Sequence record: MH675927.1
From: Escherichia phage vB_vPM_PD114
DNA length: 64,000 nucleotides
Direction: 5' to 3' (one strand)
Positions 47,258 to 61,234 of the stretch are shown here, in pieces. The notes under the pieces are model-generated. The model searched no databases and had not been told where the DNA came from. It worked only from the letters and a program-made list of their open reading frames with translations. The position numbers and the translations under genes were made by a program. The first letter of the stretch is position 1. Every line of letters starts with the position of its first letter.

Positions 47258-47545
47258 ATGTATTATTCACAAAATGAAGTAGCAAACATTAAACTGGCAG
47301 TGGGCGATCTTATTGTGTCACCTAACTACTATTGGGATAACACAGATTTGGTTGAAGTAGTAACCTATGTTGGAGTTGAAGGTATTGTGCTCTACACACT
47401 AGGTGGAGGTGTTGTTGGGGAAATGGAACGTTATACGACAACGAAGAAACTGGTAAGCTCTTATCGCATGTTTTTACACCAAGGTTCGGAAGAGTATACA
47501 GCTTTCTTGTTGAAATTAGATGCAGATCGGGAGAAGGCACGATGA
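47258..47545 (+). CDS. hypothetical protein
   Basis: 95-aa ORF with RBS GAGAGGAG. Confidence 0.45.
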   Translation: MYYSQNEVANIKLAVGDLIVSPNYYWDNTDLVEVVTYVGVEGIVLYTLGGGVVGEMERYTTTKKLVSSYRMFLHQGSEEYTAFLLKLDADREKAR

Positions 47546-47895
47546 AAATTGTACACGATGAAATTCAATTTGAAGAGAGTGATCTTCTTGATCTGGATGT
47601 GACACTAAGTAAACTGATCTACAACGCACTTTCTGCATATCGTGCAAAAGTGATAGCCACAAACAATGTTGAAATTCCTAGCGGGTTACTTCGTCGGATG
47701 TACCCACACGCTAAAGGTGACTATCTACCTTATATGGAAGAACGAGCAGCAGAACACTGGTTAGAAATTCTTGAAAAAATGGAGTCCTCTTTTAAAGATT
47801 CAACTCCACCGGAAGAAGTTAATGAAAAACAACGGCAAGAGCGTTTAGAAGGTCGTATTTTGTTTGCTAAGTATTTCCATAATTTGTGGAGCTAA
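47542..47895 (+). CDS. hypothetical protein
   Basis: 117-aa ORF, ATGA overlap with upstream gene. Confidence 0.45.
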   Translation: MKIVHDEIQFEESDLLDLDVTLSKLIYNALSAYRAKVIATNNVEIPSGLLRRMYPHAKGDYLPYMEERAAEHWLEILEKMESSFKDSTPPEEVNEKQRQERLEGRILFAKYFHNLWS

Positions 47896-47971
47896 ACATA
47901 TCTGGTAAAATCACTTATATGTTCTTAGTATACTTGTGTAAAGAAGTTATCGGTCTAATTAAGGGGAAGAT

Positions 47972-48223
47972 ATGATTCAGTTTCAAAAAGGTCAAAAGAT
48001 GACGGTATACGACGCAAAAGATATGGAATTTGCACTTGAACTTCTCGAAGATGCAGGTTTTGTGTGGATCAACGGCGGAGAGAAGCCTACGGCTTGGCTT
48101 CCACATGAAAAAATAGCCAACCACACCTTTCCTGATAGTATCAATTGGCATTCTGATGGTAAGATTTGCCGTGGAAGTTACCCAACAGGTGTTGAGTGGA
48201 CTATTAAATTAGGAGGACTTTAA
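47972..48223 (+). CDS. hypothetical protein
   Basis: 83-aa ORF with RBS AAGGGGAAG. Confidence 0.45.
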   Translation: MIQFQKGQKMTVYDAKDMEFALELLEDAGFVWINGGEKPTAWLPHEKIANHTFPDSINWHSDGKICRGSYPTGVEWTIKLGGL

Positions 48224-48224
48224 T

Positions 48225-48563
48225 ATGTTTAGTAAAGAAATGAGAGAAGTAATTGCCACTTTGGTAGTTGATCATGGTGTTGAAGTTGAGCGTCACGTTT
48301 GGAACGATGAACCTCCTTTCTTCGATTTGGCATCACGAGCTAAAAGTCATATGTACCTGCTGGAAGACGGTAATGAGTTTGTTCTCCGTATGCGTTATGA
48401 TCGAGAGTTTCGAATTCCGCTTGACACTGAACCAGATGGTGTAGTAATGTGGTTGGCAGAACATTTCGCATACGATGCACTACATGGAAGAAGTTTTGGT
48501 AATGAGCGTTGGGATGCCATTTGTCGTAAGCATAATATTGAACCAGAGTACGGGAGTATGTAA
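48225..48563 (+). CDS. hypothetical protein
   Basis: 112-aa ORF with RBS AGGAGG. Confidence 0.45.
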   Translation: MFSKEMREVIATLVVDHGVEVERHVWNDEPPFFDLASRAKSHMYLLEDGNEFVLRMRYDREFRIPLDTEPDGVVMWLAEHFAYDALHGRSFGNERWDAICRKHNIEPEYGSM

Positions 48564-48814
48564 TGTTAAGTATCAAACCTAAAATGATAACGGAAGATGA
48601 AGCAGACTTTATTTTCAAATGTGGACGTGTATGGAGAGAATTCACAAAAGGAAATGAAGTGGTTGTTGTTGTCGAACACAAGATATCTATCCAGGATCTG
48701 TTTGGACAATATGTTGATGTTATTAAATTAGGTATTGACAAGGGTTTAGTTGAGGTGTTAACATTAGATCAAGTTGAAGCAGAGCACCTCGATAAAGTAG
48801 TGGTTGAATTTTAA
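48563..48814 (+). CDS. hypothetical protein
   Basis: 83-aa ORF overlapping upstream stop. Confidence 0.45.
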   Translation: MLSIKPKMITEDEADFIFKCGRVWREFTKGNEVVVVVEHKISIQDLFGQYVDVIKLGIDKGLVEVLTLDQVEAEHLDKVVVEF

Positions 48815-48834
48815 AATACAGACGGGAGAAAGGT

Positions 48835-49008
48835 ATGAGTTTCTTTGTTACAGTATTTATGGCTATCTGGATTGTAGTCTCACTCGTTCTTTTCCTGGTG
48901 GGTTGTCTGGAAGAGATTAAGAAAGCGGTTATTTGCGGTTTCTTTGGCTTTATTATCTCTCCTGCCTGGATGTGGTTCTTCATTATGATTGGTTTCCTTA
49001 AAAGGTAA
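48835..49008 (+). CDS. small membrane protein (not in supplied ORF track)
   Basis: 57 aa, two hydrophobic helices; RBS GGGAGAAAGG. Confidence 0.35.
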   Translation: MSFFVTVFMAIWIVVSLVLFLVGCLEEIKKAVICGFFGFIISPAWMWFFIMIGFLKR

Positions 49009-49022
49009 GTGAGGAATAAAGA

Positions 49023-49460
49023 ATGAGTAAAACAAACGCAATTGCAGATAAAGCAACGGATGTACTTCTGAATATGGTTAACGTCACTATTCAAACAATG
49101 AGTGATGTTGTAGAGTTTGGAAAACAACAAATTCCAGAAGTAATCCATCAATTACTAGTGTGGAAAGCAGTATCCGCAGGTTTATGGCAACTTTTTAGTA
49201 TTTGCTTTATGTTTATTACTTTTATTGCTGTGCGGAACCTCGTAAAAGCAATTAAAGATAAAGAATGCCTGTGGTCACGAGATCGCTATGGTGAAGTATC
49301 TGCTTTACCTATTGTTGGTCTTGTTGTCTGTGCTTTCTTTTTCTTTTTAGGATTTGTTATTTTCTTTTCGAATTTTGATTGGCTAAAAATCATTATTGCA
49401 CCAAAAGTGTATCTGATTGAATTTGCTGCTGATTTAATTCGTTCATCTCAACAAAAATAA
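49023..49460 (+). CDS. membrane protein
   Basis: 145 aa with hydrophobic helices; RBS GAGGAA. Confidence 0.45.
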   Translation: MSKTNAIADKATDVLLNMVNVTIQTMSDVVEFGKQQIPEVIHQLLVWKAVSAGLWQLFSICFMFITFIAVRNLVKAIKDKECLWSRDRYGEVSALPIVGLVVCAFFFFLGFVIFFSNFDWLKIIIAPKVYLIEFAADLIRSSQQK

Positions 49461-49471
49461 AAGGGGTTAAA

Positions 49472-50599
49472 ATGAAATACACGATTTATGGTGATATTGT
49501 AAGTGTAAATAAAGATATGGGTGTGGAATCTAATTATCTTCCACCTGGATTCTATACTGTTAGTCGTGATCCCCTTGGCAATTATTTTTTAAGCCGTGGT
49601 AATCTAACAGGTGTACCGGATGTTCTGTATGGTGAAACAGAAAAACGAGCAAATCACGTTATCCGTACATTCCATCGCCGGAGTGCACAAGGTAAAAATA
49701 CAGGTTTGCTTCTGACAGGAACTAAGGGCAGTGGTAAAACTATGTTAGCCAAGCTCATTAGTCGTGACCTTGTAGAAGAAGGTATTCCAACTATTATGGT
49801 TACTCAAGCCTACAGTGATGCTAATTTCATTGAACTTATTAGCAAGATCACCGACAAAGCAGTGATTATTTTTGACGAGTTTGATAAAGTATATGAGAAG
49901 AAACAAGATCAAGAAGCACTTCTCACTTTGTTAGATGGTACTGGCAGTGGTAATAAACTGTTTATTCTAACTAAAAACAGTGGCTTTATCTCTGAATTCT
50001 TTCTAAATCGTCCTAGTCGTGTGTTTTATAATTTTAATTATGATAAAATCTCACTAGAAACTATGATTGACTATTTAGATAAAAACCTGGATAACAAAGC
50101 ACACTTTGATAATTTCCAAAGACTTTGGGATGTAAGTTTAGAGTTGTCCTTTGATGTGATCCAAGGTATAGTAGAAGAACTTAATTTCTACCCTGATTTA
50201 TCCTTTAAAGAATGCATCTCTATGATGGGCGTTTCTTTGGGTGGTGGTAATAAATGGGATATCAGCAGCGTTGTTATTAATGGAAAACTTCAGAAAGTTA
50301 GCTGGGTATCTAGTTGGCATAACTTTACACCTGCAATCTTTTTAGGTGGCTCGTGCACACTAGACGTGTACTTGTCATCTCCAAGTGATGCAGACTCTAA
50401 AGAAGCCCTTGCTAATAGCTCTTACGTGGTTTTTGATGATGAAGGCGATGCTCGAATTCCATTGAATGCGACAAAAATGAAAGCAGATCTTATTACAGGC
50501 GGTAAAATCGTTGTGTTTAGTGATGATCCAGAAGATTCTTTCCGTATTGTTCTGGAACCAACTATCACCAATGGTGCAACTTTGGCAAGTGTGTTTTAA
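49472..50599 (+). CDS. AAA-type ATPase, paralog B
   Basis: Walker A GTKGSGKT, Walker B IIFDEFDK, RPSRVFY; N-terminal 230 aa colinear with 32751-33911, C-terminal half unrelated. Confidence 0.65.
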   Translation: MKYTIYGDIVSVNKDMGVESNYLPPGFYTVSRDPLGNYFLSRGNLTGVPDVLYGETEKRANHVIRTFHRRSAQGKNTGLLLTGTKGSGKTMLAKLISRDLVEEGIPTIMVTQAYSDANFIELISKITDKAVIIFDEFDKVYEKKQDQEALLTLLDGTGSGNKLFILTKNSGFISEFFLNRPSRVFYNFNYDKISLETMIDYLDKNLDNKAHFDNFQRLWDVSLELSFDVIQGIVEELNFYPDLSFKECISMMGVSLGGGNKWDISSVVINGKLQKVSWVSSWHNFTPAIFLGGSCTLDVYLSSPSDADSKEALANSSYVVFDDEGDARIPLNATKMKADLITGGKIVVFSDDPEDSFRIVLEPTITNGATLASVF

Positions 50600-50612
50600 G
50601 TAAGCCAGCAAA

Positions 50613-50640
50613 TAAAAACCCGCTTCGGCGGGTTTTCTTG
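50613..50640 (+). terminator. rho-independent terminator
   Basis: AAAACCCGC-TTCG-GCGGGTTTT followed by CTTG. Confidence 0.7.
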
Positions 50641-50673
50641 TATTGATGCCAGATTTAATAAAAGGAGCAGTAG

Positions 50674-51864
50674 ATGCCAGCACCAAAATCATGGGAACAA
50701 TATAAAGAAGAGTGTCAACTTCTTGCGAATAAGAAGGGGATTGAGATCCTAGGGTATGTTGAACCGTTTATAGGGGGTAGTACAAAAATGATCCTACGCT
50801 GTAGACAGAAACATGAATGGAATACTTGTAGTATTAAGAATTTCAAGCGCGGTAGAAGTTGTCCTATCTGTGCTGGTAAAAGCAAGACGTTAGAAGATTA
50901 CCTTGCAGAATGCCAGCCATTAGCTGTTGAAAGAGGGATAGAGATTTTAGGTATCAATGGTGAGTTTATAGGTTGTGATACGAAAATGATGCTACGTTGT
51001 AGGCATGGTCACGAATGGAACACATGTAGCTTTGATAATTTTAAACGTGGCAATGGTTGTCTTGTATGTAGGTATGAGAATACAAGGAAGTTACAAACAA
51101 TATCCGACGATCAACACGTTGCAGACTTCTTTTCTACTGGTGTCTTCCCTGAAGGCACTATCTTCACTAACACAGGAAGAAGTAACAAATTTGGAAAAAG
51201 TATTTGGATGATTGAGTGTCCTGTTTGTTCTCACGATGAATATGTGAAAGCTGGTGTATGTAATGGTAAATTTTATTCTAGAGGGTGTCACCTAAAACAA
51301 GGGAGTATCCCTTGCCGTTGTTCTACAAACTACCGTTATACAAAAGATCAGATCACCTACAGGGTAAAAAAGACAGTAGAAAGGAAAGGGTATGTTTGGG
51401 TAGGTTGGATCGGTAAACCGTCTATAAGACCAGGTAAGTTTAAATATCTTTGTCTTATGCATGGGGAACAGATAGGGCGTGCTGATTCCTTATTAAATCA
51501 GGATAGTGGTTGTCCACAATGTGCTGGTCATAGTCAACAGCAATTATATATTAATATTGTTAAAGATAATGATATTATAGTTGCTCTTAAGTTTGGCATA
51601 GCTAAAGATAGCGATAGACGATTAAACAGTCAAAATAGCCGTAATCTGTTTTTTATGGAGCGTATTTGTTTATATGATTTTAGCACAGTGAAACAGTGTA
51701 AGGCTGCTGAAAGAGCTATAAAGAAAAAATTAAAAACTGGTATTTTAACAGCAAGAGAGTTGAAAGACGGTCATACAGAAACAGTAAGTGTTTCTGATTT
51801 GGAAAATCTTCAAAAAATTATTACACAATGTGGTGGCAAATTAGTATACAATAAGGAGGTGTAA
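50674..51864 (+). CDS. zinc-ribbon repeat protein with C-terminal T5orf172/GIY-YIG-like domain (putative DNA-binding or nuclease)
   Basis: Repeated units ...HEWNTCS..NFKRG..CP.C...; C-terminal LYINIVKDNDIIVALKFGIAKDSDRRLNSQNS resembles the T5orf172 motif. Confidence 0.4.
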   Translation: MPAPKSWEQYKEECQLLANKKGIEILGYVEPFIGGSTKMILRCRQKHEWNTCSIKNFKRGRSCPICAGKSKTLEDYLAECQPLAVERGIEILGINGEFIGCDTKMMLRCRHGHEWNTCSFDNFKRGNGCLVCRYENTRKLQTISDDQHVADFFSTGVFPEGTIFTNTGRSNKFGKSIWMIECPVCSHDEYVKAGVCNGKFYSRGCHLKQGSIPCRCSTNYRYTKDQITYRVKKTVERKGYVWVGWIGKPSIRPGKFKYLCLMHGEQIGRADSLLNQDSGCPQCAGHSQQQLYINIVKDNDIIVALKFGIAKDSDRRLNSQNSRNLFFMERICLYDFSTVKQCKAAERAIKKKLKTGILTARELKDGHTETVSVSDLENLQKIITQCGGKLVYNKEV

Positions 51865-52416
51865 ATGCGGATTACTGACAAGTATGTGTTCTTCTTCTCG
51901 GCAAAAGATGAATTTAGCAACTGGTATCTATCATCTTTTATTGAACCTTTAGCTCCCAAGTATAATAATTCTATTACAAGTTCTGTCGAATTTACTTGTG
52001 TGGAACAATATATGATGTGGAGAAAAGCATGTTTGTTTTATGATTACAATATTGCATCTTCTATTTTAACCGGAGATCTAAGATATACAGGAGAAAAAGA
52101 ACAAGCATATTATAAACGACTAGGCAGATCAGTTAAAGATTATGATGAAGATACTTGGACTTCTTTACGGGAGAAGATTGTCAAGCGTGGTTTGTATCTT
52201 AAATACACACAAAATGAAGATCTCAAAAATAAACTTATCGCTTACGCAGATAAGGAGTTCGTAGAGGCAAGCCCCTATGATTCTATTTATGGTATCAAAA
52301 TGGGGATGTGGGATCGTGATGTTGAAAACAAGGATTGTTGGAAAGGACAAAATCTTTTAGGAAAATGGCATACAGACCTTGCTGTTTATCTAAAAACACA
52401 ATCTGATATTTCCTGA
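51865..52416 (+). CDS. NADAR (YbiA/DUF1768) family protein, predicted ADP-ribosyl N-glycosidase
   Basis: VFFFSAKDEFSNW...FTCVEQYMMWRKA...RLGRSV...ASPYDSIYGIKMG...GQNLLGK colinear with the YbiA/NADAR signature; RBS AAGGAGG. Confidence 0.75.
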   Translation: MRITDKYVFFFSAKDEFSNWYLSSFIEPLAPKYNNSITSSVEFTCVEQYMMWRKACLFYDYNIASSILTGDLRYTGEKEQAYYKRLGRSVKDYDEDTWTSLREKIVKRGLYLKYTQNEDLKNKLIAYADKEFVEASPYDSIYGIKMGMWDRDVENKDCWKGQNLLGKWHTDLAVYLKTQSDIS

Positions 52417-52634
52417 TATTTTGAAAATTTTTATTTTTATAAAAAGGGGTGTGGGTTTCATGTACGGAAATCCACCCTCTGAATAATATATCCAGAGTAA
52501 GTAGTATTCTGTACTCTGTTAATAAAGTATTTAATTTGTTTGTTGGACTATGATATCTGATCTTTAAAAGGCATACTATCTCTTAACTACTACTTATAAC
52601 AAAACAGTAAAATCCTTTTTATAAAAAGTACAAA

Positions 52635-52840
52635 ATTATTTAAAGTTTTTACAGATTTTCGGGTACAAATTTTGAAAATGAAAAGTTCAAGTTTGGTCAA
52701 AATTATTTAAAGTTTTTGTACGTATTTCTATCCAGATTTTGAAAATGAAAACTTCAATTTTTTAAAAATTCCCCAGTTTATTTAAAGTTTTTTTGCCTTT
52801 TTCCGTAGAAAAATCAAAAATGAAAAGTTCAATTTCGTGT
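52635..52840. repeat. three tandem direct repeats of about 66-76 bp
   Basis: Each unit has TTATTTAAAGTTTTT (52635, 52701, 52777) and TTTTGAAAATGAAAAGTTCAA (52671, 52737, 52811). Confidence 0.7.
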
Positions 52841-52855
52841 TTTTATAGGTGTGTT

Positions 52856-52967
52856 AATGAGAATCATTTTCGTTTGTAAATGAGAATCATTATCATTTAA
52901 CTATGTAAGTGATAATCATTCTCAGTAAGAGAATGAGAATCATTAGCAAATGAGAATTTTTCTCATT
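52856..52967. promoter_or_regulatory. cluster of Fur-box-like palindromic sites (AATGAGAATCATT family)
   Basis: At least five copies; AATGAGAATCATTATC (52879-52894) matches 15/16 positions of the E. coli Fur consensus; perfect palindrome AATGAGAA-TTT-TTCTCATT at 52948-52966. Confidence 0.45.
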
Positions 52968-53229
52968 TACAGAATAACGCGCAGGGGCGGTGTTTGTCTC
53001 GCGCTCCCGTGTCCCCTCGCCATACAATAAGAATAGCATAACCAACAACAAAAGCAAGCGATTATTTTTATCTTTACATTTCTTTACAAATTTATTTTAG
53101 ACGAGCTACCGGCGATCAACCTTCCAACCAGTGCCCCCTGGTATGTTAGCCCCGCCTTTACGCCGTGGGGGTGGCGTTTCCTCTTCTGTATGTAAAACAG
53201 TATAAGCCCGATCCCTGGGCTTGTCAAGA

Positions 53230-53496
53230 TTATTTTTTGTTTTCTTGCCAGGATAGGACACCTAACCAAAAATACATGTCGCCCCGCGCCCCTGGTGGGA
53301 TCTTGCTTTCCCCGCCGCCACTGCAAGCCCATAGATAACCATTTACGAACGTATCAAAGTGATCTATCTCTTCCACCTTATGATCGCCCAGGTTGAGAAC
53401 GGTTTCAACCTTTAAGCCCGTTGCGCTTGCTACCTGGTGCACCGTGCCGCCTTGCCAGCCCAGTGAGTGCATGAGATGTAAAGGAGTATTTGTCAT
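53230..53496 (-). CDS. hypothetical protein in a G+C-rich island
   Basis: 88-aa ORF with RBS AAAGGG; region is visibly more G+C-rich than its surroundings; no motif recognised. Confidence 0.35.
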   Translation of the reverse strand: MTNTPLHLMHSLGWQGGTVHQVASATGLKVETVLNLGDHKVEEIDHFDTFVNGYLWACSGGGESKIPPGARGDMYFWLGVLSWQENKK

Positions 53497-53607
53497 GGTA
53501 TCGCCCTTTCTTTGTTGTGCGCCCTGGTTGGCGCGGTAGAAAGATGATAGCCGTTTCCTTTATAGATAGCAAGCAAAAAAGAAATGAAAAAAGATTAAAA
53601 AAAATGG

Positions 53608-53636
53608 TTGACGTTCCTCACCTGGTAGCGTAGTAT
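53608..53636 (+). promoter_or_regulatory. sigma70-like promoter (TTGACG-17-TAGTAT), first of the rightward early-gene array
   Basis: Near-consensus hexamers with 17-bp spacer about 130 nt upstream of 53765. Confidence 0.5.
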
Positions 53637-53764
53637 TCATCTTGTCGAGGGGCGGCAAGGCACAACGACAATAAACAATAGGCGGGTGCAATGCAAGACG
53701 GGCAAAGGTGAGGATCTCCACAATCCACCGTCACAATAACATTACTTATAAAAGGTTGATAACA

Positions 53765-53869
53765 ATGATCAAGAAAGAAAATAGCTTGACGGTTGGAACG
53801 ATTAACGCTATCATTCTTGCCGTTCCCTTTTGGATTGTAGTGTCAGTTATTATTTCAATCATTCTATAA
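53765..53869 (+). CDS. small membrane peptide (34 aa; not in ORF track)
   Basis: ATG with AAAGG RBS; hydrophobic. Confidence 0.3.
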   Translation: MIKKENSLTVGTINAIILAVPFWIVVSVIISIIL

Positions 53870-53879
53870 GGCGCACACT

Positions 53880-54161
53880 ATGAGCAAGGTAATTAGTCAT
53901 AAAGAGTTAAGCCCTACTCTTTCAATGAGTGAGTGCACCGATGGCTTTTGGCTGTATGATGATACGCGCGGCATGAATTTAGCTATGCGTGAAAAAACAG
54001 AAGAGGCGGCGTATATTGAAGCCCTGGAATACTACCAGGAACGACTAAAGGAAGTAGAAAACAATTATAATAACCTAAAAACAAAGGTAGATCATTTTAT
54101 CAGCCAGGTGGCAGATGACGACGATGATCACTATTGCGAGCGGTGCGGATCATACAGCTAA
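53880..54161 (+). CDS. hypothetical protein
   Basis: 93 aa; acidic DDDDD tract and C-terminal CERCG. Confidence 0.45.
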   Translation: MSKVISHKELSPTLSMSECTDGFWLYDDTRGMNLAMREKTEEAAYIEALEYYQERLKEVENNYNNLKTKVDHFISQVADDDDDHYCERCGSYS

Positions 54162-54181
54162 AATTATTTTTAAAAATATTC

Positions 54182-54242
54182 TTGACAACGTTTTTTAAAC
54201 TGATAAGATGTATCACATAGGGCGGCGGAATACTTCCCCGCC
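54182..54242 (+). promoter_or_regulatory. sigma70 promoter (TTGACA-16-TAAGAT, extended TG) plus GC-rich leader hairpin
   Basis: TTGACA 54182-54187, TAAGAT 54204-54209, hairpin GGGCGGCGGAATACTTCCCCGCC 54220-54242, then RBS and ATG 54265; 40-nt promoter sequence repeated at 56520. Confidence 0.6.
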
Positions 54243-54264
54243 AAAACAAAAAAAGGGTAATGCA

Positions 54265-54627
54265 ATGAGCAAGCAAATCAATACTATCATGTTTAATCTG
54301 GTATCTTTCCGCGACGATATGAAAAATTTACCACGTGAAACGGTTGATATTCATGTTTCAGCTTATCGCGCCCTTATTGATATGTTACCGCTAAAACGTG
54401 ATCAACATGCCGCTAATATGATGCTTAATGCTATGCTTAAAAAGATGATTCAAACGGATCTCACCCTGGCGTATGAGTATCAAGGGCGCTTATATGCAAC
54501 TTACAACAAGGCGGTACCTGGTCTGGGAAGTACCGAAGAGTTGCACGGCTTAAACCTGGATCAAAACACTTGGGATAGTATGCGCCGCGTTATGGTATGG
54601 GCCGAAAGCGGTAAAATTTACGAATAA
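54265..54627 (+). CDS. hypothetical protein
   Basis: Start at ATG 54265 (RBS AAGGG) downstream of promoter and hairpin; the longer track ORF begins inside the promoter. Confidence 0.5.
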   Translation: MSKQINTIMFNLVSFRDDMKNLPRETVDIHVSAYRALIDMLPLKRDQHAANMMLNAMLKKMIQTDLTLAYEYQGRLYATYNKAVPGLGSTEELHGLNLDQNTWDSMRRVMVWAESGKIYE

Positions 54628-54633
54628 AAACGG

Positions 54634-54686
54634 TTGACATTGCACTAAAACCTGATAAGCTATCTTAAAGCGGGAACTATTCCCGC
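54634..54686 (+). promoter_or_regulatory. sigma70 promoter (TTGACA-16-TAAGCT) plus leader hairpin GCGGGAA-CTA-TTCCCGC
   Basis: TTGACA 54634-54639; hairpin 54670-54686. Confidence 0.55.
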
Positions 54687-54705
54687 TTACATAGGATAAA
54701 ACTTT

Positions 54706-54852
54706 ATGAAACAATATGTAATGAGTATTCATACCAAAAACGGCGCTACTGTTACGACTCCGGCACGGTTTGCACTTGTAAACCGTTGCAACAGACTAAA
54801 ACGAGAGCTAAAAAATAACCGTGCAACGGGCTTTAAACGCTGGGGAGGATAA
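54706..54852 (+). CDS. small hypothetical basic protein (48 aa; not in ORF track)
   Basis: ATG 54706 after promoter and hairpin; stop 2 nt before the next gene start. Confidence 0.35.
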   Translation: MKQYVMSIHTKNGATVTTPARFALVNRCNRLKRELKNNRATGFKRWGG

Positions 54853-54854
54853 TC

Positions 54855-55115
54855 TTGTTTTTTCTAAAAGTTTTTGATAATGTGATCGCTTTTGAACATG
54901 CTACAACGTTCGACCTGGCGAGATATGCTATCAGGTTTAAAGATAATGTTTATCCCCGTGCTGGCGGCGGTTACACTATTTTTAATCATCGCAACGCGCA
55001 ACTGACTGATGTAACTAATCCAGATCCTGGAGTGTATCGGATAGGCTGGCTACCGTCAAAAGACGCTGCAAGCATGTTTAAGGTATGTAAACTACTAACA
55101 GAAGAGGCGAACTAG
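54855..55115 (+). CDS. hypothetical protein
   Basis: TTG start with RBS GGAGGAT; 86 aa. Confidence 0.45.
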   Translation: MFFLKVFDNVIAFEHATTFDLARYAIRFKDNVYPRAGGGYTIFNHRNAQLTDVTNPDPGVYRIGWLPSKDAASMFKVCKLLTEEAN

Positions 55116-55116
55116 C

Positions 55117-55671
55117 ATGGGGCGTGAATATGTGATCCAGTCCTGGGTAAAGCATGACGCAAATGATCCGCGCATAATACCAGATGACATGATCGATCAC
55201 ATGGTAGGGTATAGCGGGGAGCAGATAGGAAATCGAGCGGCAAAGAGCAACGGCAATACCAGGACGAGATCCGTTCGCCCTGGATGGCTGGCGAATGGTA
55301 ACGCTGACATTGCAAGCGCCGCAGATCCAAGCGATGACGCTAAAAATAATCCCTTGTACAGCATTGATCCGGCTTTTAAGGTGTTGGAAGAGTATCCCGC
55401 TAAATTAGCCGCACTAGATAAGGCATACGCAGAAAAGCGCATGGCATGGACTGTATACAACACCGCTAAAATGGTGCTAGATGCAAAACTAATTAAAGCC
55501 CAGGAGAAGATCAATAAACTTGTTACCATAGCGCAAAAGGAAGACCAGGGCGACCAGGAGGAAGAGGAAGAAATCATGCCTATCCTGGAAGAGGAAGAGA
55601 TCCAGCCATACATGCCGACGGAAGAGGAAAAAAGACAAGCCTTAAAAAATTATGAAAATTGTGTTGTGTAA
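55117..55671 (+). CDS. hypothetical protein with acidic C-terminal tail
   Basis: 184 aa; EEEEE-rich C-terminus. Confidence 0.45.
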   Translation: MGREYVIQSWVKHDANDPRIIPDDMIDHMVGYSGEQIGNRAAKSNGNTRTRSVRPGWLANGNADIASAADPSDDAKNNPLYSIDPAFKVLEEYPAKLAALDKAYAEKRMAWTVYNTAKMVLDAKLIKAQEKINKLVTIAQKEDQGDQEEEEEIMPILEEEEIQPYMPTEEEKRQALKNYENCVV

Positions 55672-55674
55672 GGC

Positions 55675-55729
55675 TTGACATATGCAAACAAGCCCCGTAA
55701 TATATACCACATAGAGCGGGGCAACGCCT
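55675..55729 (+). promoter_or_regulatory. sigma70 promoter (TTGACA-17-TAATAT) with degenerate GC leader element
   Basis: TTGACA 55675-55680, TAATAT 55698-55703, CATAGAGCGGGGCAACGCC downstream. Confidence 0.45.
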
Positions 55730-55751
55730 CAAAGGTGAAATAAAAAATCAC

Positions 55752-55779
55752 TTGACACCTGAAATCAGTAAGCTATAAT
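55752..55779 (+). promoter_or_regulatory. consensus sigma70 promoter (TTGACA-16-TATAAT)
   Basis: Perfect -35 and -10 hexamers at 55752-55757 and 55774-55779, upstream of ATG 55817. Confidence 0.65.
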
Positions 55780-55816
55780 GCTTATATAAATTAAAGCGTT
55801 ACTAAGGAATAAAATC

Positions 55817-56182
55817 ATGGCTAAAAATATCAATGTTTCTGCTTATGCTACCCTGGCTAACACTGCTAAAATTGAACTATCCAGCATTGAAGCGGTACAT
55901 ATTAGCGCCCGTCGCTGGTTTCAAAAGTCTTATGGTAATACTTATTTCTCTTTGATGGTTGACGTTGAGATCGGCGGTAAACTGATTGAAGTCGTTAACG
56001 TTCCGTTTCAATATGGTTATGGTGATCATTTTGATACCGTTGCCCTAGAAGAGTTTAGCAAGGTTATCAACCTGGAAGGTAAAGACTTTTCAAATTATGC
56101 TTACCTTTCCCGTTTTTGCCGTGACAATGGGATCGCTGTATACAGTCATGCAAGCGATGTTAAACGTAAAAAAGATTTATAA
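55817..56182 (+). CDS. hypothetical protein
   Basis: 121 aa. Confidence 0.5.
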   Translation: MAKNINVSAYATLANTAKIELSSIEAVHISARRWFQKSYGNTYFSLMVDVEIGGKLIEVVNVPFQYGYGDHFDTVALEEFSKVINLEGKDFSNYAYLSRFCRDNGIAVYSHASDVKRKKDL

Positions 56183-56188
56183 AAAGCA

Positions 56189-56246
56189 TTGACAGCACGA
56201 ATAAAAAGCATATAATACTTATATCGAGAGCGGGAATAGTTCCCGC
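56189..56246 (+). promoter_or_regulatory. consensus sigma70 promoter (TTGACA-16-TATAAT) plus leader hairpin GCGGGAA-TAG-TTCCCGC
   Basis: TTGACA 56189-56194, TATAAT 56211-56216, hairpin 56230-56246. Confidence 0.65.
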
Positions 56247-56270
56247 CTCACTGAAAAAGAGATTAACATC

Positions 56271-56510
56271 ATGGCTAAATCTAAAATGTACAACGGTCAC
56301 AAAAATAAAACTCATTGGAATGTAAGCCTTTGGATTAATAACGATCCAGGTTTTTATAATATGGCAAAAGAATTTATAGCCGTGAACAACAATAAAGATA
56401 ACGCCGCGCGTGAAATGATGTCACTACTTAACGAAATGGGCCAAACTACTACGCCAGATGGCTATAAATTCAGTAAAACCAGTATCCGCGCCGCTATGGT
56501 AGGAATGTAA
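56271..56510 (+). CDS. hypothetical protein
   Basis: 79 aa. Confidence 0.5.
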   Translation: MAKSKMYNGHKNKTHWNVSLWINNDPGFYNMAKEFIAVNNNKDNAAREMMSLLNEMGQTTTPDGYKFSKTSIRAAMVGM

Positions 56511-56519
56511 TAAAAACAG

Positions 56520-56579
56520 TTGACAACGTTTTTTAAACTGATAAGATGTATCACATAGGGCGGGAAATGGTTTCCCGCC
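56520..56579 (+). promoter_or_regulatory. sigma70 promoter (TTGACA-16-TAAGAT) plus 21-bp palindrome GGCGGGAAATGGTTTCCCGCC
   Basis: Promoter nearly identical over 40 nt to the one at 54182; palindrome 56559-56579. Confidence 0.6.
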
Positions 56580-56601
56580 AAATCAAAGAAAGGTTAACAT
56601 T

Positions 56602-56829
56602 ATGGCTATCGTTATTGTTCGCGTATCCGGTACGGTTGGGATCTCCCAGGTAGTAGCAGTTATCACCGAGAAGAAAGGGGATGATCTTCACTCCTCTTTG
56701 AATAGCTGGGCGGTCGCTAACTTTGGGCAATGGTCGAGCGTTGAGTACATCGAAGCATACCAGGTGCCAACGATTAGCCTAACCGATCTAAATGTTGATC
56801 GCTTGTTGTGCCTGGATCAATTAAACTAA
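56602..56829 (+). CDS. hypothetical protein
   Basis: 75 aa. Confidence 0.5.
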   Translation: MAIVIVRVSGTVGISQVVAVITEKKGDDLHSSLNSWAVANFGQWSSVEYIEAYQVPTISLTDLNVDRLLCLDQLN

Positions 56830-56837
56830 AAATAATA

Positions 56838-56895
56838 TTGACAAGATAACTAAAATCAGTAAAATGTAATGCATAGGGCGGCACTATTGCCGCCC
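56838..56895 (+). promoter_or_regulatory. sigma70 promoter (TTGACA-16-TAAAAT) plus leader hairpin GGGCGGCA-CTAT-TGCCGCCC
   Basis: TTGACA 56838-56843; hairpin 56876-56895. Confidence 0.55.
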
Positions 56896-56916
56896 CTAGT
56901 GAGAGAGATTATCAAA

Positions 56917-57132
56917 ATGGCTAATATCCGCACACTGTTAAAAAATGCAAGTCAAGTTTTATTTTCAGATGACGAGTATTTCAACAAAGACATTACAGGC
57001 GTGAAAAATTTAAAAGACGTGAAGGATGTTATCGGTATCCGTGGATCTTTACGTAAAGATGACATATACGGTAACAAGGTGCAATATAAATTGTCAAAAG
57101 ATTATGATTTTACTTTGACAATTATTTCATAA
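56917..57132 (+). CDS. hypothetical protein
   Basis: Start at ATG 56917 after the leader hairpin; the longer track ORF would start inside the hairpin. Confidence 0.5.
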   Translation: MANIRTLLKNASQVLFSDDEYFNKDITGVKNLKDVKDVIGIRGSLRKDDIYGNKVQYKLSKDYDFTLTIIS

Positions 57133-57138
57133 AACTAC

Positions 57139-57199
57139 TTGCAAACCTGGTAAAATAAAGTAAACTATATTCATTAAGGCGGTAGAATAGCCCACCGCC
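57139..57199 (+). promoter_or_regulatory. sigma70-like promoter (TTGCAA-16-TAAACT) plus leader hairpin GGCGGT...ACCGCC
   Basis: TTGCAA 57139-57144; hairpin 57178-57199. Confidence 0.45.
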
Positions 57200-57222
57200 T
57201 AACAAAGAGAAGAGGAAACATC

Positions 57223-57393
57223 ATGATTACTTTCGCCACCCGTGAAGCCGCTCGCAACGTTGCACGTAAAGTTAACGCCGCCAACCTGGGCGCTACGCTT
57301 AAAGCACCGGTTAAAGATGAATCAGGAAAATGGATCTTTCCTGGTCTGCGTCACGCTGATAAGCTGGGAACATTAACGTTAAAAAATAAATAA
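57223..57393 (+). CDS. small hypothetical basic protein (56 aa; not in ORF track)
   Basis: ATG 57223 with RBS AGAGGAAA after promoter and hairpin. Confidence 0.4.
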   Translation: MITFATREAARNVARKVNAANLGATLKAPVKDESGKWIFPGLRHADKLGTLTLKNK

Positions 57394-57400
57394 TATTCGC

Positions 57401-57459
57401 TTGACAGTAGCATCATTTATAAGTAAAGTAACAACAACGGCGGGAAATGGTTTCCCGCC
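57401..57459 (+). promoter_or_regulatory. sigma70 promoter (TTGACA-17-TAAAGT) plus palindrome GGCGGGAAATGGTTTCCCGCC
   Basis: TTGACA 57401-57406; palindrome 57439-57459. Confidence 0.55.
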
Positions 57460-57479
57460 ATCAATAAAGAGATAAGATT

Positions 57480-57839
57480 ATGAAATCAGCAAAAGCAATT
57501 AAAACTTACATTTTATCGGCTATTTCTTTTGATGGTACTACAACCGAAAAAGAAAAGATCACCGAACTGATGCGCCGTTTTAACTCTGAATACTGGTATC
57601 CCGATAATCAAAAACGTTACAATCATAACATGACCAAGGCGATAGCCTCATGGTTACAAGGTTTACCGTCAGAAGTCAATATTGCTTTTGATTATAATGA
57701 GATCGATCACTTGTTAATTGAATGGAAGTGCATAAAAGAAACAAGCAAAGAAACAACCGTTACCCGTGAGCGGGAAAATTATTGGTTATATATTGCAAGC
57801 ATGATCGTAATCCTGGCAAAACAGCATAACGTGGCGTAA
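57480..57839 (+). CDS. hypothetical protein
   Basis: 119 aa. Confidence 0.5.
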   Translation: MKSAKAIKTYILSAISFDGTTTEKEKITELMRRFNSEYWYPDNQKRYNHNMTKAIASWLQGLPSEVNIAFDYNEIDHLLIEWKCIKETSKETTVTRERENYWLYIASMIVILAKQHNVA

Positions 57840-57854
57840 TTAAGAGGAAGAAAC

Positions 57855-57992
57855 ATGAACGCATCACAGCAGATCGAAAAATTCAACCGCAGCAAGGCGC
57901 GTAAAGATTGGAACGAAGAGATCACCAAAAAAGGCGATAAGCGGAACAAAACAAAAAGAGATCGCAGCACAAAAAGACACTGGAACGAATAA
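57855..57992 (+). CDS. small hypothetical basic protein (45 aa; not in ORF track)
   Basis: ATG 57855 with RBS GAGGAAG; K/R-rich; followed by a terminator. Confidence 0.35.
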   Translation: MNASQQIEKFNRSKARKDWNEEITKKGDKRNKTKRDRSTKRHWNE

Positions 57993-57994
57993 CA

Positions 57995-58021
57995 AAAAGG
58001 GCGCAATAAGCGCCCTTTTAG
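57995..58021 (+). terminator. rho-independent terminator (GGGCGC-AATA-GCGCCC)
   Basis: Hairpin with A-run before and T-run after; same hairpin at 62880. Confidence 0.7.
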
Positions 58022-58110
58022 CTTATATAGAGGCTTGTTACCCATAGGCAATGGTAACGCCAGGGCAAGCCTATAAATCAACGTTAGACGGCTTTACAGG
58101 AGCTTTAAAA

Positions 58111-58293
58111 ATGAGATTAGAAGAAATAAGCAAGGCACTAGCCCAGGGGCAAAGGTTATGCGCCCGATATCGTGATCAATATGGCTTCATAACTAGCGGC
58201 GTGATCCTGGGGATTGAAGGCAATAAAATTTTTATTGACACGTTGAAAAACGTTGTATATAGTGACAATATAATCTCAATAAAACATATATGA
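58111..58293 (+). CDS. hypothetical protein
   Basis: Start at ATG 58111 (RBS CAGGAG); 60 aa. Confidence 0.4.
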   Translation: MRLEEISKALAQGQRLCARYRDQYGFITSGVILGIEGNKIFIDTLKNVVYSDNIISIKHI

Positions 58294-58301
58294 GGCAAGA
58301 A

Positions 58302-58703
58302 ATGAAAAAATTATTGATCGCTGGTTTAATCTCTTTTGGCATGGTTGGAACATCTAGCGCGGCGATATCCTCCACAATAGCAGAATTAAGCGCCGTTGAT
58401 GCAATGGAAAACGTCATGATCATTAATAACGCGATCCCCGATGAAATCATGGAGGATTCTCACATGATCGCTTATGGTGCTGTTACACAATTAACGGCAA
58501 AAATAGATAAATCTATTGTTAATGGCTTAAATGAAGATGTACCATGTGAAATTATTACCAGTGTGCTAACGACTCAAAATTTTACGCCGTGGCTAAAAAG
58601 TATTCAAAAGGTACACAGCACCGCCGCAGATCGTAGCAATGAAAAACTAGTGTCAGCACTTGCAACGTATACCCTAGCAAAATGTACCGAAATAAAAGAT
58701 TGA
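58302..58703 (+). CDS. hypothetical secreted protein
   Basis: Signal peptide MKKLLIAGLISFGMVGTSSAA; start ATG 58302 (RBS GAGG). Confidence 0.5.
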   Translation: MKKLLIAGLISFGMVGTSSAAISSTIAELSAVDAMENVMIINNAIPDEIMEDSHMIAYGAVTQLTAKIDKSIVNGLNEDVPCEIITSVLTTQNFTPWLKSIQKVHSTAADRSNEKLVSALATYTLAKCTEIKD

Positions 58704-58728
58704 CAACATAGAAAGCACGTTATAAGAT
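58700..58728 (+). promoter_or_regulatory. sigma70 promoter (TTGACA-17-TAAGAT)
   Basis: TTGACA 58700-58705, TAAGAT 58723-58728, followed by RBS AAAGGAGA and ATG 58751. Confidence 0.55.
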
Positions 58729-58750
58729 ACACACAACAAAGGAGAACTAC

Positions 58751-59053
58751 ATGAACGGCATAGCTAAAACGTTTTTTCTTTTTTCTGGTGTAAATGATCC
58801 ATCAATAAAAGTCGATAGTGTAAAAGAAAACAACACTATCACCGCTAAATTGTTTCAAGATGAAACAAATAACGTGCTAATCATTAATCTTAAAGAAATA
58901 ACGAAAGGTTATTATACTATTGCTTACCATGCGATCTATCATGCGGGTACTAGTGAGGAAGTGCAAACAAGCAACAACGAAAGCGCGGCGCTACCTGGTG
59001 ATCTGGTGCTGGGCGTTATCAGTTTAATTGTCAATGATTTTTTTAAGGAGTAA
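58751..59053 (+). CDS. hypothetical protein
   Basis: 100 aa. Confidence 0.5.
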   Translation: MNGIAKTFFLFSGVNDPSIKVDSVKENNTITAKLFQDETNNVLIINLKEITKGYYTIAYHAIYHAGTSEEVQTSNNESAALPGDLVLGVISLIVNDFFKE

Positions 59054-59057
59054 AACC

Positions 59058-59153
59058 ATGCCCTATTTACATTTATTTTTCGGTATCTTATTGACAGGAT
59101 CTTTTTTCTTCTGTATGCTTGTTTCTATTGTAAACCACGTTTTAAGACATTAA
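59058..59153 (+). CDS. small hydrophobic peptide (31 aa; not in ORF track)
   Basis: ATG with RBS AAGGAG; single TM helix. Confidence 0.25.
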   Translation: MPYLHLFFGILLTGSFFFCMLVSIVNHVLRH

Positions 59154-59162
59154 GGAAACAGC

Positions 59163-59282
59163 ATGAAAATTATTCCCGTACAGTATAGCGTAATAAATCC
59201 AGCATATGAGGAAGGAAGGAAAACAAGCATGGTTTTATGTTGTATTGCTACTATAGCCATGTTATTATACATTGTGTTTTAA
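59163..59282 (+). CDS. small hydrophobic peptide (39 aa; not in ORF track)
   Basis: ATG with RBS AAGGAAA; C-terminal TM helix. Confidence 0.25.
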   Translation: MKIIPVQYSVINPAYEEGRKTSMVLCCIATIAMLLYIVF

Positions 59283-59311
59283 TAGGTTTTATAGTTGTAC
59301 GCTTTAAAGGC

Positions 59312-59363
59312 TTGACAATTTTTTGTTATGCTTTAAACTATATCTTGAAAACGGCAAAGGCCG
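59312..59363 (+). promoter_or_regulatory. sigma70-like promoter (TTGACA-16-TAAACT) plus short leader hairpin CGGC-AAAG-GCCG
   Basis: TTGACA 59312-59317; hairpin 59352-59363. Confidence 0.45.
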
Positions 59364-59382
59364 CAAACAAAAGGGTAAAATT

Positions 59383-59706
59383 ATGAAATCTGTGATCGGT
59401 GTTTATTTGGATAACTCTGATTTTTTCTATCATCGTGCGCGTTTCCTTGATGCGATTGAAATGATAGAATCAGGCTTTAAAGAATACCGCCTTGCACATG
59501 ATGACCTGGAAGCATTACAGGGCAATAGTGTTTTTACATTGCAAGCGAAAGCACTATGCAAAAGCCGGATCGACATTGCGAGCAAAAAGATAGAACGCGG
59601 CATGTCCTGGTTGCGCACCGCAGAAATCAACATGGGGCAATGGTACGGCGAAAACTTAGAAAATAAACGCCCTTTTGTAAATGTAGAAAATCTTAAAGAT
59701 TATTGA
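59383..59706 (+). CDS. hypothetical protein
   Basis: Start at ATG 59383 (RBS AAAAGGG); 107 aa. Confidence 0.5.
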   Translation: MKSVIGVYLDNSDFFYHRARFLDAIEMIESGFKEYRLAHDDLEALQGNSVFTLQAKALCKSRIDIASKKIERGMSWLRTAEINMGQWYGENLENKRPFVNVENLKDY

Positions 59707-59768
59707 TTGACAGCACACCTGATAAGTAATATATTGTATCTCATAGAGCGGGGAAATGGTTTCCCCGC
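59706..59768 (+). promoter_or_regulatory. sigma70 promoter (TTGACA-17-TATATT) plus leader hairpin GCGGGGAAA-TGGT-TTTCCCCGC
   Basis: TTGACA 59706-59711, TATATT 59729-59734, hairpin 59747-59768. Confidence 0.55.
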
Positions 59769-59789
59769 CTAACAGAAGAGAGAAAAATC

Positions 59790-60074
59790 ATGAAAATCAC
59801 AAAAAGCCTAACTAATTATGCAGCACGTCGCGGATTATGTTTAACCGTTGAAAACTTAGGGAAAGAAGACTTTTTGTGTTTTTGGGAGCTTGAAAATGAT
59901 TGCGAGTGGATGTTTTCTTATTCTATCTGCGAAGATCAAAACGGTTGTTTGTTAACCTGGCGCGGTAATATCTATTTACCGGAAGAAATTAAAGAAGAGT
60001 TACCAGGTACGATCATGACAGAGAGACAGCTTAAGGAAGTGATCAATTTTGTAGGGCAAAACATTAAAAAATAA
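59790..60074 (+). CDS. hypothetical protein
   Basis: 94 aa. Confidence 0.5.
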   Translation: MKITKSLTNYAARRGLCLTVENLGKEDFLCFWELENDCEWMFSYSICEDQNGCLLTWRGNIYLPEEIKEELPGTIMTERQLKEVINFVGQNIKK

Positions 60075-60075
60075 T

Positions 60076-60136
60076 TTGACAGCACGCAAACAACGTAGTA
60101 AAGTTTATTACATAGAGCGGTGGACCATTCCGCCGC
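60076..60136 (+). promoter_or_regulatory. sigma70 promoter (TTGACA-17-TAAAGT) plus leader hairpin GCGGTGGA-CCAT-TCCGCCGC
   Basis: TTGACA 60076-60081, TAAAGT 60099-60104, hairpin 60117-60136 (one mismatch in stem). Confidence 0.5.
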
Positions 60137-60159
60137 TCACAACAGAAGAGAAACAAATC

Positions 60160-60330
60160 ATGATCCCGACTATGTTTTATGTATCGCGCAAAGGTCACAA
60201 TATTTTTTGGTCTGAAGATTTAAATGAAGCCATGACGTTTGCCCGTAATCGTGTTGCTATCGGTGGCGTTAACATCACCGTAACCGATGAAAACGGCATT
60301 GAATACTATAACGGCGACGATGAAGAATAA
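60160..60330 (+). CDS. hypothetical protein
   Basis: Start at ATG 60160 after the hairpin; 56 aa. Confidence 0.45.
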   Translation: MIPTMFYVSRKGHNIFWSEDLNEAMTFARNRVAIGGVNITVTDENGIEYYNGDDEE

Positions 60331-60337
60331 TTAATGA

Positions 60338-60357
60338 GGCGGGGGAGTATTCCCGCC
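60338..60357 (+). promoter_or_regulatory. intergenic GC hairpin without an obvious promoter (GGCGGG-GGAGTATT-CCCGCC)
   Basis: Same hairpin family as the leader elements, but directly between two genes of one transcription unit. Confidence 0.4.
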
Positions 60358-60376
60358 ATTAATAAAGAGGTAAATC

Positions 60377-60652
60377 ATGAAAATATCATTGGACGTTGCA
60401 ATCAAGGCCATCGAATCCGGTTACACCCTGGTAAAAGATGATAAGGCTAAAATAGTGCATCATGTTAACAAGGAAACAGGCGAAAGCATGATCACATATA
60501 AAGCCGCCTACTTTCTCCAATCAGTAGCAGATCCGCGCGTACAACGCCAGGTTACGGCGGCTATTGCTAAAAAATTATGTGCTTTACAGGGTACAAGTTT
60601 TAACGAGATCGCCCCGTGTTTTGACTGGTCGAGCTTGAAAAAATTAGTTTGA
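60377..60652 (+). CDS. hypothetical protein
   Basis: 91 aa; RBS AAAGAGG. Confidence 0.5.
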   Translation: MKISLDVAIKAIESGYTLVKDDKAKIVHHVNKETGESMITYKAAYFLQSVADPRVQRQVTAAIAKKLCALQGTSFNEIAPCFDWSSLKKLV

Positions 60653-60710
60653 CAACAGTCAACAATCTGGTAAAGTGTACTACATAGGGCGGGGCAATAA
60701 GGCAACGCCC
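60649..60710 (+). promoter_or_regulatory. sigma70 promoter (TTGACA-16-TAAAGT) plus GC-rich leader element
   Basis: TTGACA 60649-60654, TAAAGT 60671-60676, GGGCGGGGCAATAAGGCAACGCCC 60687-60710. Confidence 0.5.
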
Positions 60711-60728
60711 ATTAATGATGGTAGAATC

Positions 60729-60833
60729 ATGTTAGAGAAAATTTTCACGGTTGTAATAGTGGGCCTGGCGTTATCGGTTGGAGTGGTTGCAACTATGGCT
60801 AATATGATCCTATCTTCCCACGGTATCGGTTAA
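60729..60833 (+). CDS. small hydrophobic peptide (34 aa; not in ORF track)
   Basis: ATG 60729; single TM helix. Confidence 0.3.
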   Translation: MLEKIFTVVIVGLALSVGVVATMANMILSSHGIG

Positions 60834-60847
60834 AAGAGAGACACAGC

Positions 60848-61234
60848 ATGAAAACAGAAATCATTATTGAAATCATCAACGGTTATAAAGAAGCCTTTAT
60901 TTTTGCTGAATCAGCAAGGGATCATGAAGGTAATTTTATTGAAAACTTAGACGATTATGATTTTTCTCCTAGCGCGGATCAACGGATCGCCCAGGATGTA
61001 ACAGCCTTTATTAATGCTAATCTTGCCGCTATCTCTGAGGCAATGAGCGACGGCGCAACAGCCAACCAGATCGGGAATGATTTACATTTTACTCGTAACG
61101 ATCATGGCGTTGGTTTTTGGGATCGCCCTGAAATATACACTACTAACACAGCAAACCGTTTAACTAATGCAGCTAAATTAATGCCATCGGTGCATGCTTA
61201 CATTGGTGAAGATAATTTGATTTATATTGAATAA
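60848..61234 (+). CDS. hypothetical protein
   Basis: 128 aa; RBS AAAGAGAGA. Confidence 0.5.
   Translation: MKTEIIIEIINGYKEAFIFAESARDHEGNFIENLDDYDFSPSADQRIAQDVTAFINANLAAISEAMSDGATANQIGNDLHFTRNDHGVGFWDRPEIYTTNTANRLTNAAKLMPSVHAYIGEDNLIYIE

Follow-up and report, generated by a model that had tools for sequence, protein, structure and literature searches.

Three direct repeats with an origin-like layout in the conserved control region that borders the early-gene block of Justusliebigvirus and related myoviruses on its inner side

The region described here lies in a 64,000-nt stretch of Escherichia phage vB_vPM_PD114 (MH675927.1; hereafter the window, meaning the whole stretch that was analysed), between the end of a NADAR gene at 52416 (Pfam E 1e-36) and a plus-strand promoter (TTGACG-17-TAGTAT, 53608–53636) at the head of a rightward block of small early genes. 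The window belongs to Justusliebigvirus (Stephanstirmvirinae; relatives of phi92 and VEcB) and is about 98% identical to phages ALITA, alia and VEcB, and the 1.2 kb around the repeats is 96–99% identical to about 55 Justusliebigvirus Escherichia phages, including ALITA, alia, inny, VEcB and BME3. In the GenBank records of alia, inny and muut the site is entered as a bare ‘repeat_region’ with no comment, which indicates that annotators noticed the repeat without interpreting it. The rV5 genome map shows what is possibly a counterpart as a ‘non-coding’ box, with no function given (PMC3606486). In the literature that we searched there was neither work on this region or on Fur boxes in T5 nor a transcript map of any of these phages.

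The intergenic DNA, which the original prediction described as 1.3 kb with no convincing ORF, is organised as a dense control region. On its minus strand, divergent from the early genes, lies a conserved ORF of 88 aa (53230–53496; PHROG 19316, E 5e-58), which PVP-SE1 and CR9 lack and whose residues 17–35 (GTVHQVASATGLKVETVLN), by eye, have the look of a helix-turn-helix. The same DNA carries a pair of conserved sigma-70-type promoters, also on the minus strand, a group of palindromes that resemble Fur boxes, and a structured element that is conserved as well. Upstream of the NADAR gene, an endonuclease-like ORF with CapR and T5orf172 domains (50674–51864), probably a homing endonuclease, separates that gene from an AAA+ ATPase.

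The three direct repeats of about 70 bp that had been noticed ahead of the early block are present at 52631–52840, with spacings of 67 and 75 bp. Tandem Repeats Finder reported 52631–52761 as 2.0 copies of period 67 with 81% matches (score 176), and a repeat search returned a single family of three copies in register across 52616–52835, 67 and 75 bp apart from start to start and 69–71% identical. Every unit carries two boxes. Box A (TTATTTAAAGTTTTT) occurs exactly at 52636, 52703 and 52778 and has no other exact copy in the 64 kb, and the core of Box B, (A)AAAATGAAAAGTTCAA, lies at 52675, 52742 (one mismatch) and 52817. Thus unit 1 (52631–52697) has Box A at 52636–52650 and Box B (TTTTGAAAATGAAAAGTTCAA) at 52670–52690; unit 2 (52698–52772) has Box A at 52703–52717 and Box B, with its one mismatch (AAAACTTCAA), at 52737–52757; and unit 3 (52773–52840) has Box A at 52778–52792 and Box B (ATCAAAAATGAAAAGTTCAA) at 52812–52832, with a spacer 8 bp longer. 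The distance from box to box is about 33–34 bp, and the spacers between Box A and Box B differ from unit to unit, as had been described. The tandem-repeat and motif analysis that had been proposed found both the repeats and boxes that are unique within 64 kb: elsewhere the two boxes have only chance-level matches with 2–3 mismatches, and the array is the only place in the 64 kb where 12-mers occur three times within 300 bp, an event seen in 0 of 100 composition-preserving block shuffles. We rejected a coding role for the units given their periods of 67 and 75 bp and the absence of any ORF across them. The array lies in the largest internal non-coding region and is a genuine, conserved feature of non-random origin.

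At 77% A+T, the units rank among the 1% least stable DNA of the 64 kb by our own nearest-neighbour script. The same script marked a very A+T-rich segment adjoining unit 1 (52483–52630) as a candidate unwinding region. Of all 200-bp windows in the 64 kb, the one that begins at 52483, next to unit 1, is second in instability. No other 210-bp stretch of the 64 kb has a predicted curvature as high as that of the array (19.1 versus 10.0 ± 1.7, calculated with our own script from wedge parameters), a property confined to Justusliebigvirus, with predicted curvature not elevated in other lineages. The least stable and most A+T-rich DNA of the window is at 63190–63460, between the early block and the genome end, where three copies of ATCTAACCT(A/T)TA lie about 100–150 bp apart.

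Several other elements share the non-coding region with the repeats. At its left edge, two plus-strand decamers (CTGATATTTC, 52403–52421) overlap the NADAR stop codon; in CR9 and phiTE, three copies of TTGATATTTG occupy the equivalent left edge. A hairpin after the NADAR gene (52446–52479) is followed by a U-run (CCUUUUUAU) 3′ of it on the minus strand only, so that it could terminate leftward transcripts that have already passed the repeats. On the other side of the array, a Fur-box-like cluster (52853–52971) comprises four sites at 52853, 52876, 52905 and 52929 plus the palindrome AAATGAGAATTTTTCTCATTT. Scored against GATAATGATAATCATTATC, which we take to be the 19-bp Fur-box consensus, the four sites match at 15–16 of 19 positions and fall within 95 bp, and shuffled sequences gave about 0.7 per 64 kb. 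Phage arall (L147), a viable isolate, has a natural 52-bp deletion equivalent to 52865–52916 that takes out two Fur-like boxes and spares the units, which indicates that the number of such boxes is flexible (one to five across lineages). A further Fur-like cluster lies at 63112–63182, with a 16/19 site at 63167, and the BME3 terminal repeat has similar boxes; in all, at least nine putative Fur sites surround the early block of this virulent phage, and we found no earlier description of such a phage in the literature searched.

Next to the Fur-like cluster, a G+C-rich imperfect hairpin with a conserved loop (GGTGTTTGTCTC) spans 52975–53022 at the 5′ end of the transcript predicted from promoter P2; its fold was no better than that of shuffled sequences (z about −0.1). 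P2 (53030–53057, minus strand) combines a −35 of TTGCTT (53057–53052), a 16-nt spacer and a −10 of TATTCT (53035–53030), and fires leftward, to the Fur-like boxes and the repeats. Upstream of its −35 is a CpxR-box-like sequence on the minus strand (53073–53087) that matches exactly GTAAA-N5-GTAAA, which we take to be the CpxR-box consensus, although a single chance match to this consensus is not rare (0.43 expected per window). A second, strong minus-strand promoter, P1, has the form TTGACA-17-TATACT (53199–53227). In an alignment of 16 lineages the P2 hexamers are kept and the spacers vary (TTGCAA-17-TATATT in CR9, phiTE and L132), and P1 likewise shows conserved hexamers and a variable spacer across lineages. 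This pattern of kept hexamers and varying spacers is good comparative evidence that both P1 and P2 are real promoters. The CpxR-like box was found in 14 of the 16 lineages examined, with one substitution in L140 and no box in A5-4, and stands either 5 nt or 14–15 nt from the −35: Stephanstirmvirinae and L137 have a 9–10-nt insertion between the two, which keeps the helical face.

Between the two promoters, the conserved structured element (53100–53190, minus strand) is about 84% identical even in Vequintavirinae and probably represents an RNA made from P1. It would form a long-range helix, with one cleanly covarying pair that is GC in seven and AU in six sequences and that also changes between close relatives; changes in loop length are not multiples of three, which excludes coding. 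An alternative G-U-rich hairpin is possible on the plus strand, so that either strand may be the transcribed one. With no match to an Rfam family, this element of about 90 nt is a candidate for a new phage non-coding RNA.

We then compared the array across relatives. Its absence from them had been named as an outcome that would count against it; the repeats are conserved. Among 12 aligned Justusliebigvirus isolates, Box A shows no substitution, its sole change being a 1-nt insertion in the T-run in J-01, and Box B shows one change, also in J-01, where the mismatch of unit 2 becomes the consensus G. The other five variable sites in these isolates all fall in spacers or flanks. The numbers are small, but their direction is as expected for conserved boxes. 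At greater distance, BLAST found 52948–53600 conserved in Phapecoctavirus and 53071–53196 about 84% identical in Vequintavirinae such as CR8/CR9, PVP-SE1, phiTE and Klebsiella phages. For the wider comparison we used 15 IMG/VR loci recovered with the conserved structured element, together with GenBank loci. A scan of viral contigs with TTATTTAAA-N50-75-TTATTTAAA gave only unrelated A+T-rich chance matches, matches in a plasmid search were confined to 45 bp of the Fur-like region and came from Moraxella plasmids, and a search of E. coli genomes was uninformative.

Nearly every lineage shares one order of elements: units, Fur-like palindromes (often with a 29-bp period), G+C hairpin, P2 with its CpxR-like box, structured element and P1. 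The spacing of Box A is 67 + 75 = 142 bp in both Justusliebigvirus and a Klebsiella ‘Sichuanvirus’ phage, and 66 + 72 = 138 bp in Phapecoctavirus. Ten Vequintavirinae-type loci, representing about six distinct lineages, have exactly three units each, built on a different core (GKTCTCGATCG..TTTTC..TTTC..ATCGTATT, usually followed by GAAAAAATTTTT). Their unit starts are spaced 75 + 67, 74 + 67, 78 + 63 or 78 + 64 bp with a total that is always 141–142 bp, so that the span has been retained through changes in internal spacing. Each of the three units can be recognised individually across the Vequintavirinae-type lineages, and the triplication is therefore old. Profiles of the Stephanstirmvirinae-type and Vequintavirinae-type units showed no significant homology to each other in nhmmer searches (E ≥ 0.3), so that their equivalence rests on position, number and span. 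Unit sequences are lineage-specific, whereas the Fur-like and CpxR-like boxes beside them retain theirs from one lineage to another. A5-4, a more distant member of the Vequintavirinae, has four shorter units at other spacings, one Fur-like box and no CpxR-like box. Locus L144 has an insertion of about 740 bp between the block of Fur-like and CpxR-like boxes (with which the units, hairpin and P2 presumably travel) and the structured element, which suggests that the region consists of two modules. Taken as a whole, the array and its neighbours belong to an old non-coding control region that adjoins the inner end of the terminal block of early genes in rV5-, PVP-SE1-, phAPEC8- and phi92-like myoviruses.

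Searches for recognisable signals within the units gave few matches. Manual comparison with consensus sites of E. coli regulators produced no convincing match to IHF, Fis, Lrp, PurR, Cra, TrpR, SlmA, RcsB, ArgR, OmpR, PhoP or H-NS, and among the regulators compared only the neighbouring Fur-like and CpxR-like boxes fit. Manual inspection for sigma-28, extended −10, T4-late-like (TATAAATA) and rV5-late-like motifs likewise gave no consistent promoter in the units. Rfam searches at relaxed thresholds returned two miRNA false positives for the window and nothing for five related loci, and a tRNA search of the window found none.

Of the functions that had been offered for the repeats, a promoter or enhancer array is very unlikely. 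Three promoters or UP-element enhancers for host RNA polymerase would account for Box A (read as AAAATTATTTA), which by our own reading agrees at 10 of 11 positions with AAAWWTWTTTT, which we take to be the UP-element consensus, and for the weak −35-like hexamers that follow it (TTTACA, TTGTAC and TTGCCT). However, a sigma-70 scan combined with manual reading found no unit with a usable −35/−10 pair on either strand: none has a −10 at 16–18 bp, and the sole match that the scan gave in the array, a weak 9/12 on the minus strand of unit 2, is not repeated in the other units. Neither strand has a gene downstream before a terminator, and the motifs stand upstream of no other gene in the 64 kb. A packaging (pac/cos) or partition site is more improbable still, even though three reiterated sites resemble lambda cosB R1–R3 and plasmid centromere sites, and GATC pairs with a separation of 20 bp abound in Vequintavirinae-type units, as they do in P1 pac; Justusliebigvirus units contain no GATC. 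The physical end of the genome lies elsewhere: BME3 has a 342-bp direct terminal repeat (PMC12210895), which matches the start of the VEcB record, and the VEcB record ends at about 63956, placing the end just right of the window edge and about 11.5 kb from the units. That end has repeats of its own, since about six copies of TATTTGTTG run through 63915–64000 up to the right edge, where the BME3 terminal repeat then follows; these are probably terminase or terminus recognition repeats. We gave no weight to the records of ETEC-TG and phi1_175008 starting just left of unit 1, as both are circular records without evidence of an end. Against partition, the phage is virulent and a Pfam scan of 24 flanking ORFs gave no ParA/ParB-like match. 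A stop or anchor for DNA entry of the T5 type, by which the terminal early block of about 11.5 kb would enter first and the region would hold the DNA until early proteins were made, is also improbable, if less so. The distance from the array and Fur-like boxes to the right end is about 11.5 kb, or about 7.8% of the genome, with all early genes and their promoter on the terminal side, and in T5 the first-step-transfer DNA is 7.9% of the genome with an estimated shear point in DRE2, within ‘Repeat Region 3’ (bioRxiv 10.1101/866236). Fur-like palindromes in the DRE part of that T5 region, a candidate injection stop signal, match 52864–52944 at 76%. Yet there is no report of two-step transfer in these phages, the three units are without a counterpart in T5, the present region has no DnaA boxes, the same host protein could explain the shared Fur-like boxes, and phiTE and PVP-SE1 are reported to be circularly permuted (PMC3475682) and would have no fixed end.

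Two further explanations place the units in gene expression. The units may act at the RNA level, as binding modules (for example, a protein or sRNA sponge) in a leftward non-coding P2 transcript of about 550–600 nt that ends at the hairpin at 52446–52479. The conserved promoter firing into the array, the hairpin with its minus-strand U-run just beyond, and the capacity of Vequintavirinae to use transcribed repeats, as in the phiTE pseudo-ToxI locus (PMC3475682), are all consistent with such a transcript. We nevertheless regard this explanation as unlikely, because no conserved hairpin, covariation or Rfam match was found in the units, the conserved pieces of Vequintavirinae-type units are DNA palindromes (CTCGATCGAG and GAAAAAATTTTTC) that suggest dimeric DNA binders, and most transcripts may end at the G+C-rich hairpin that directly follows the P2 start. 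An array with a regulatory or insulator role is a more serious possibility, although still a doubtful one: the units would be operators of a phage regulator, or nucleation sites for a nucleoid protein such as H-NS or Fis, at which binding blocks or modulates transcription at the boundary of the rightward operon ending with NADAR, the leftward P2/P1 unit and the early block. This would suit an A+T-rich array, strongly curved in Justusliebigvirus, that sits between convergent transcription units, adjacent to a cluster of Fur-like boxes and to a CpxR-like box with its promoter, and that in Stephanstirmvirinae has a small conserved ORF beside it. But the repeats begin and end about 180–390 bp beyond the P2 start, on its downstream side, and are separated from the early promoter by about 770 bp, neither of which is an operator position; the array is present in PVP-SE1 and CR9, which lack the 88-aa ORF; the curvature is not conserved; and a host factor would be expected to bind sequence-conserved sites, whereas the units are lineage-specific.

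The suggestion that the repeats are reiterated binding sites fared better. Their conservation, and the recurrence of their number, position and geometry in other genera and in a second subfamily, support it, and of the specific options under it an origin is compatible with the layout. From sequence comparison, the three units are probably a working DNA site that acts in cis. Turnover of sequence with number, position and span kept points to a protein–DNA complex of defined geometry, and the contrast between conserved host-factor-like boxes and lineage-specific units suggests that the binder is encoded by the phage and co-evolves with its sites as initiators do with iterons. We therefore tentatively prefer a fixed-geometry binding array for a co-evolving phage protein, in an origin-like layout, as a plausible reading that falls short of an even chance. 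Protein binding, a phage-encoded binder and an origin function are each what we infer from the sequences compared. Under this reading, a sequence-specific and probably phage-encoded protein would load on the three composite sites, the adjacent least stable A+T-rich DNA (52483–52650) would open, and leftward transcription from P2 and P1, pointing into the array, would activate or prime initiation. The leftward layout, in which P2 and P1 fire to the array and a hairpin with a minus-strand U-run lies beyond it, fits these steps. Counting against an origin, the units of 67–75 bp are far longer than classical 17–22-bp iterons and there are only three. We found no DnaA box (TTATCCACA or TTWTNCACA) in 47263–64000, and the 24 flanking ORFs gave no initiator, ParA/ParB or clear DNA-binding domain in Pfam, PHROG and PDB-sequence searches. 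The nearest AAA+ ATPase (49472–50599), 2 kb upstream, has generic matches only. Cumulative GC skew follows the direction of transcription, with no inflection at the array.

A broader arrangement can also be imagined, and we hold it to be improbable: the entire 1.15 kb of non-coding DNA, with the three units at its core, could be a control hub shared by the two subfamilies. Iron, through the clustered Fur sites, and envelope stress, through a promoter activated by CpxR, would then control leftward transcription into a three-site nucleoprotein complex that either fires replication or, as has been proposed for T5, holds the DNA after the terminal early block (about 8% of the genome) has entered. 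Since Fur-like boxes of the same kind occur in the T5 region proposed as a pause point of DNA transfer, Fur-coated DNA might in that case be a shared and unrecognised part of staged entry or of early control among coliphages that are not related. Isolates related to phi92, phAPEC8, rV5 and PVP-SE1 are common and are used in therapy cocktails. In their genomes, what has been recorded as a bare repeat_region is part of a conserved architecture in which a three-unit array of fixed span is accompanied by Fur-like boxes, a structured element of no assigned class and a promoter that carries a CpxR-like box, and this architecture gives concrete sites for deletion, probing and mapping. An origin at the array would represent a new origin layout, and host-regulator boxes that work would mean that a virulent phage reads the iron and envelope-stress status of its host.

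Compared with known systems, the array would share with lambda cosB (R3/R2/R1) and F sopC a small number of reiterated protein-binding sites in fixed geometry, but it lies 11.5 kb from the genome end and no partition genes were found. ToxI and pseudo-ToxI arrays differ in being near-identical repeats of 34–45 nt, whereas the units here are 67–75 bp, 69–71% identical and without an Rfam match; phiTE has its pseudo-ToxI locus in another part of the genome, at 106.7 kb (PMC3475682). T5 ‘Repeat Region 3’ is likewise a long, conserved stretch of non-coding DNA full of repeats, located at the inner boundary of a terminal early block that covers about 8% of the genome, and its Fur-box-like palindromes are 76% identical over about 80 bp to window positions 52864–52944. 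However, T5 combines paired DnaA boxes, set in inverted repeats, with DRD repeats and a terminal repeat of 10 kb, whereas this phage type has a short terminal repeat (342 bp in BME3; PMC12210895), a CpxR-like box and three units. In T5_ev219 (L004), at about 1375–1392, the sequence CTGTATATTTATACAG fits the LexA-box pattern CTGT-N8-ACAG beside DnaA and Fur-like boxes; the Davison T5 preprint mentions neither LexA nor Fur (bioRxiv 10.1101/866236).

The closest parallels for the preferred origin-type array are replication origins. The T7 primary origin and T4 oriF and oriG are transcription-activated phage origins, and as in those systems the promoters here (P2 and P1) fire into a downstream A+T-rich region; the T7 and T4 origins, however, have no reiterated 70-bp units, and the promoters here carry host-regulator-like boxes. 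Relative to iteron-type origins (lambda ori, P1 oriR and iteron plasmids), the array differs in that its units are 67–75 bp long, composite (two boxes plus a spacer) and only three in number, that repeats of 17–22 bp in helical phase are absent, and that it has neither DnaA boxes nor a recognisable adjacent initiator gene. It resembles them in having direct repeats in a non-coding, A+T-rich and bent region, with kept number and spacing, sequences that change by lineage and an easily melted segment alongside. The class that suits it best is that of reiterated protein-binding arrays, of which it would be a variant with an origin-like layout and a putative binder.
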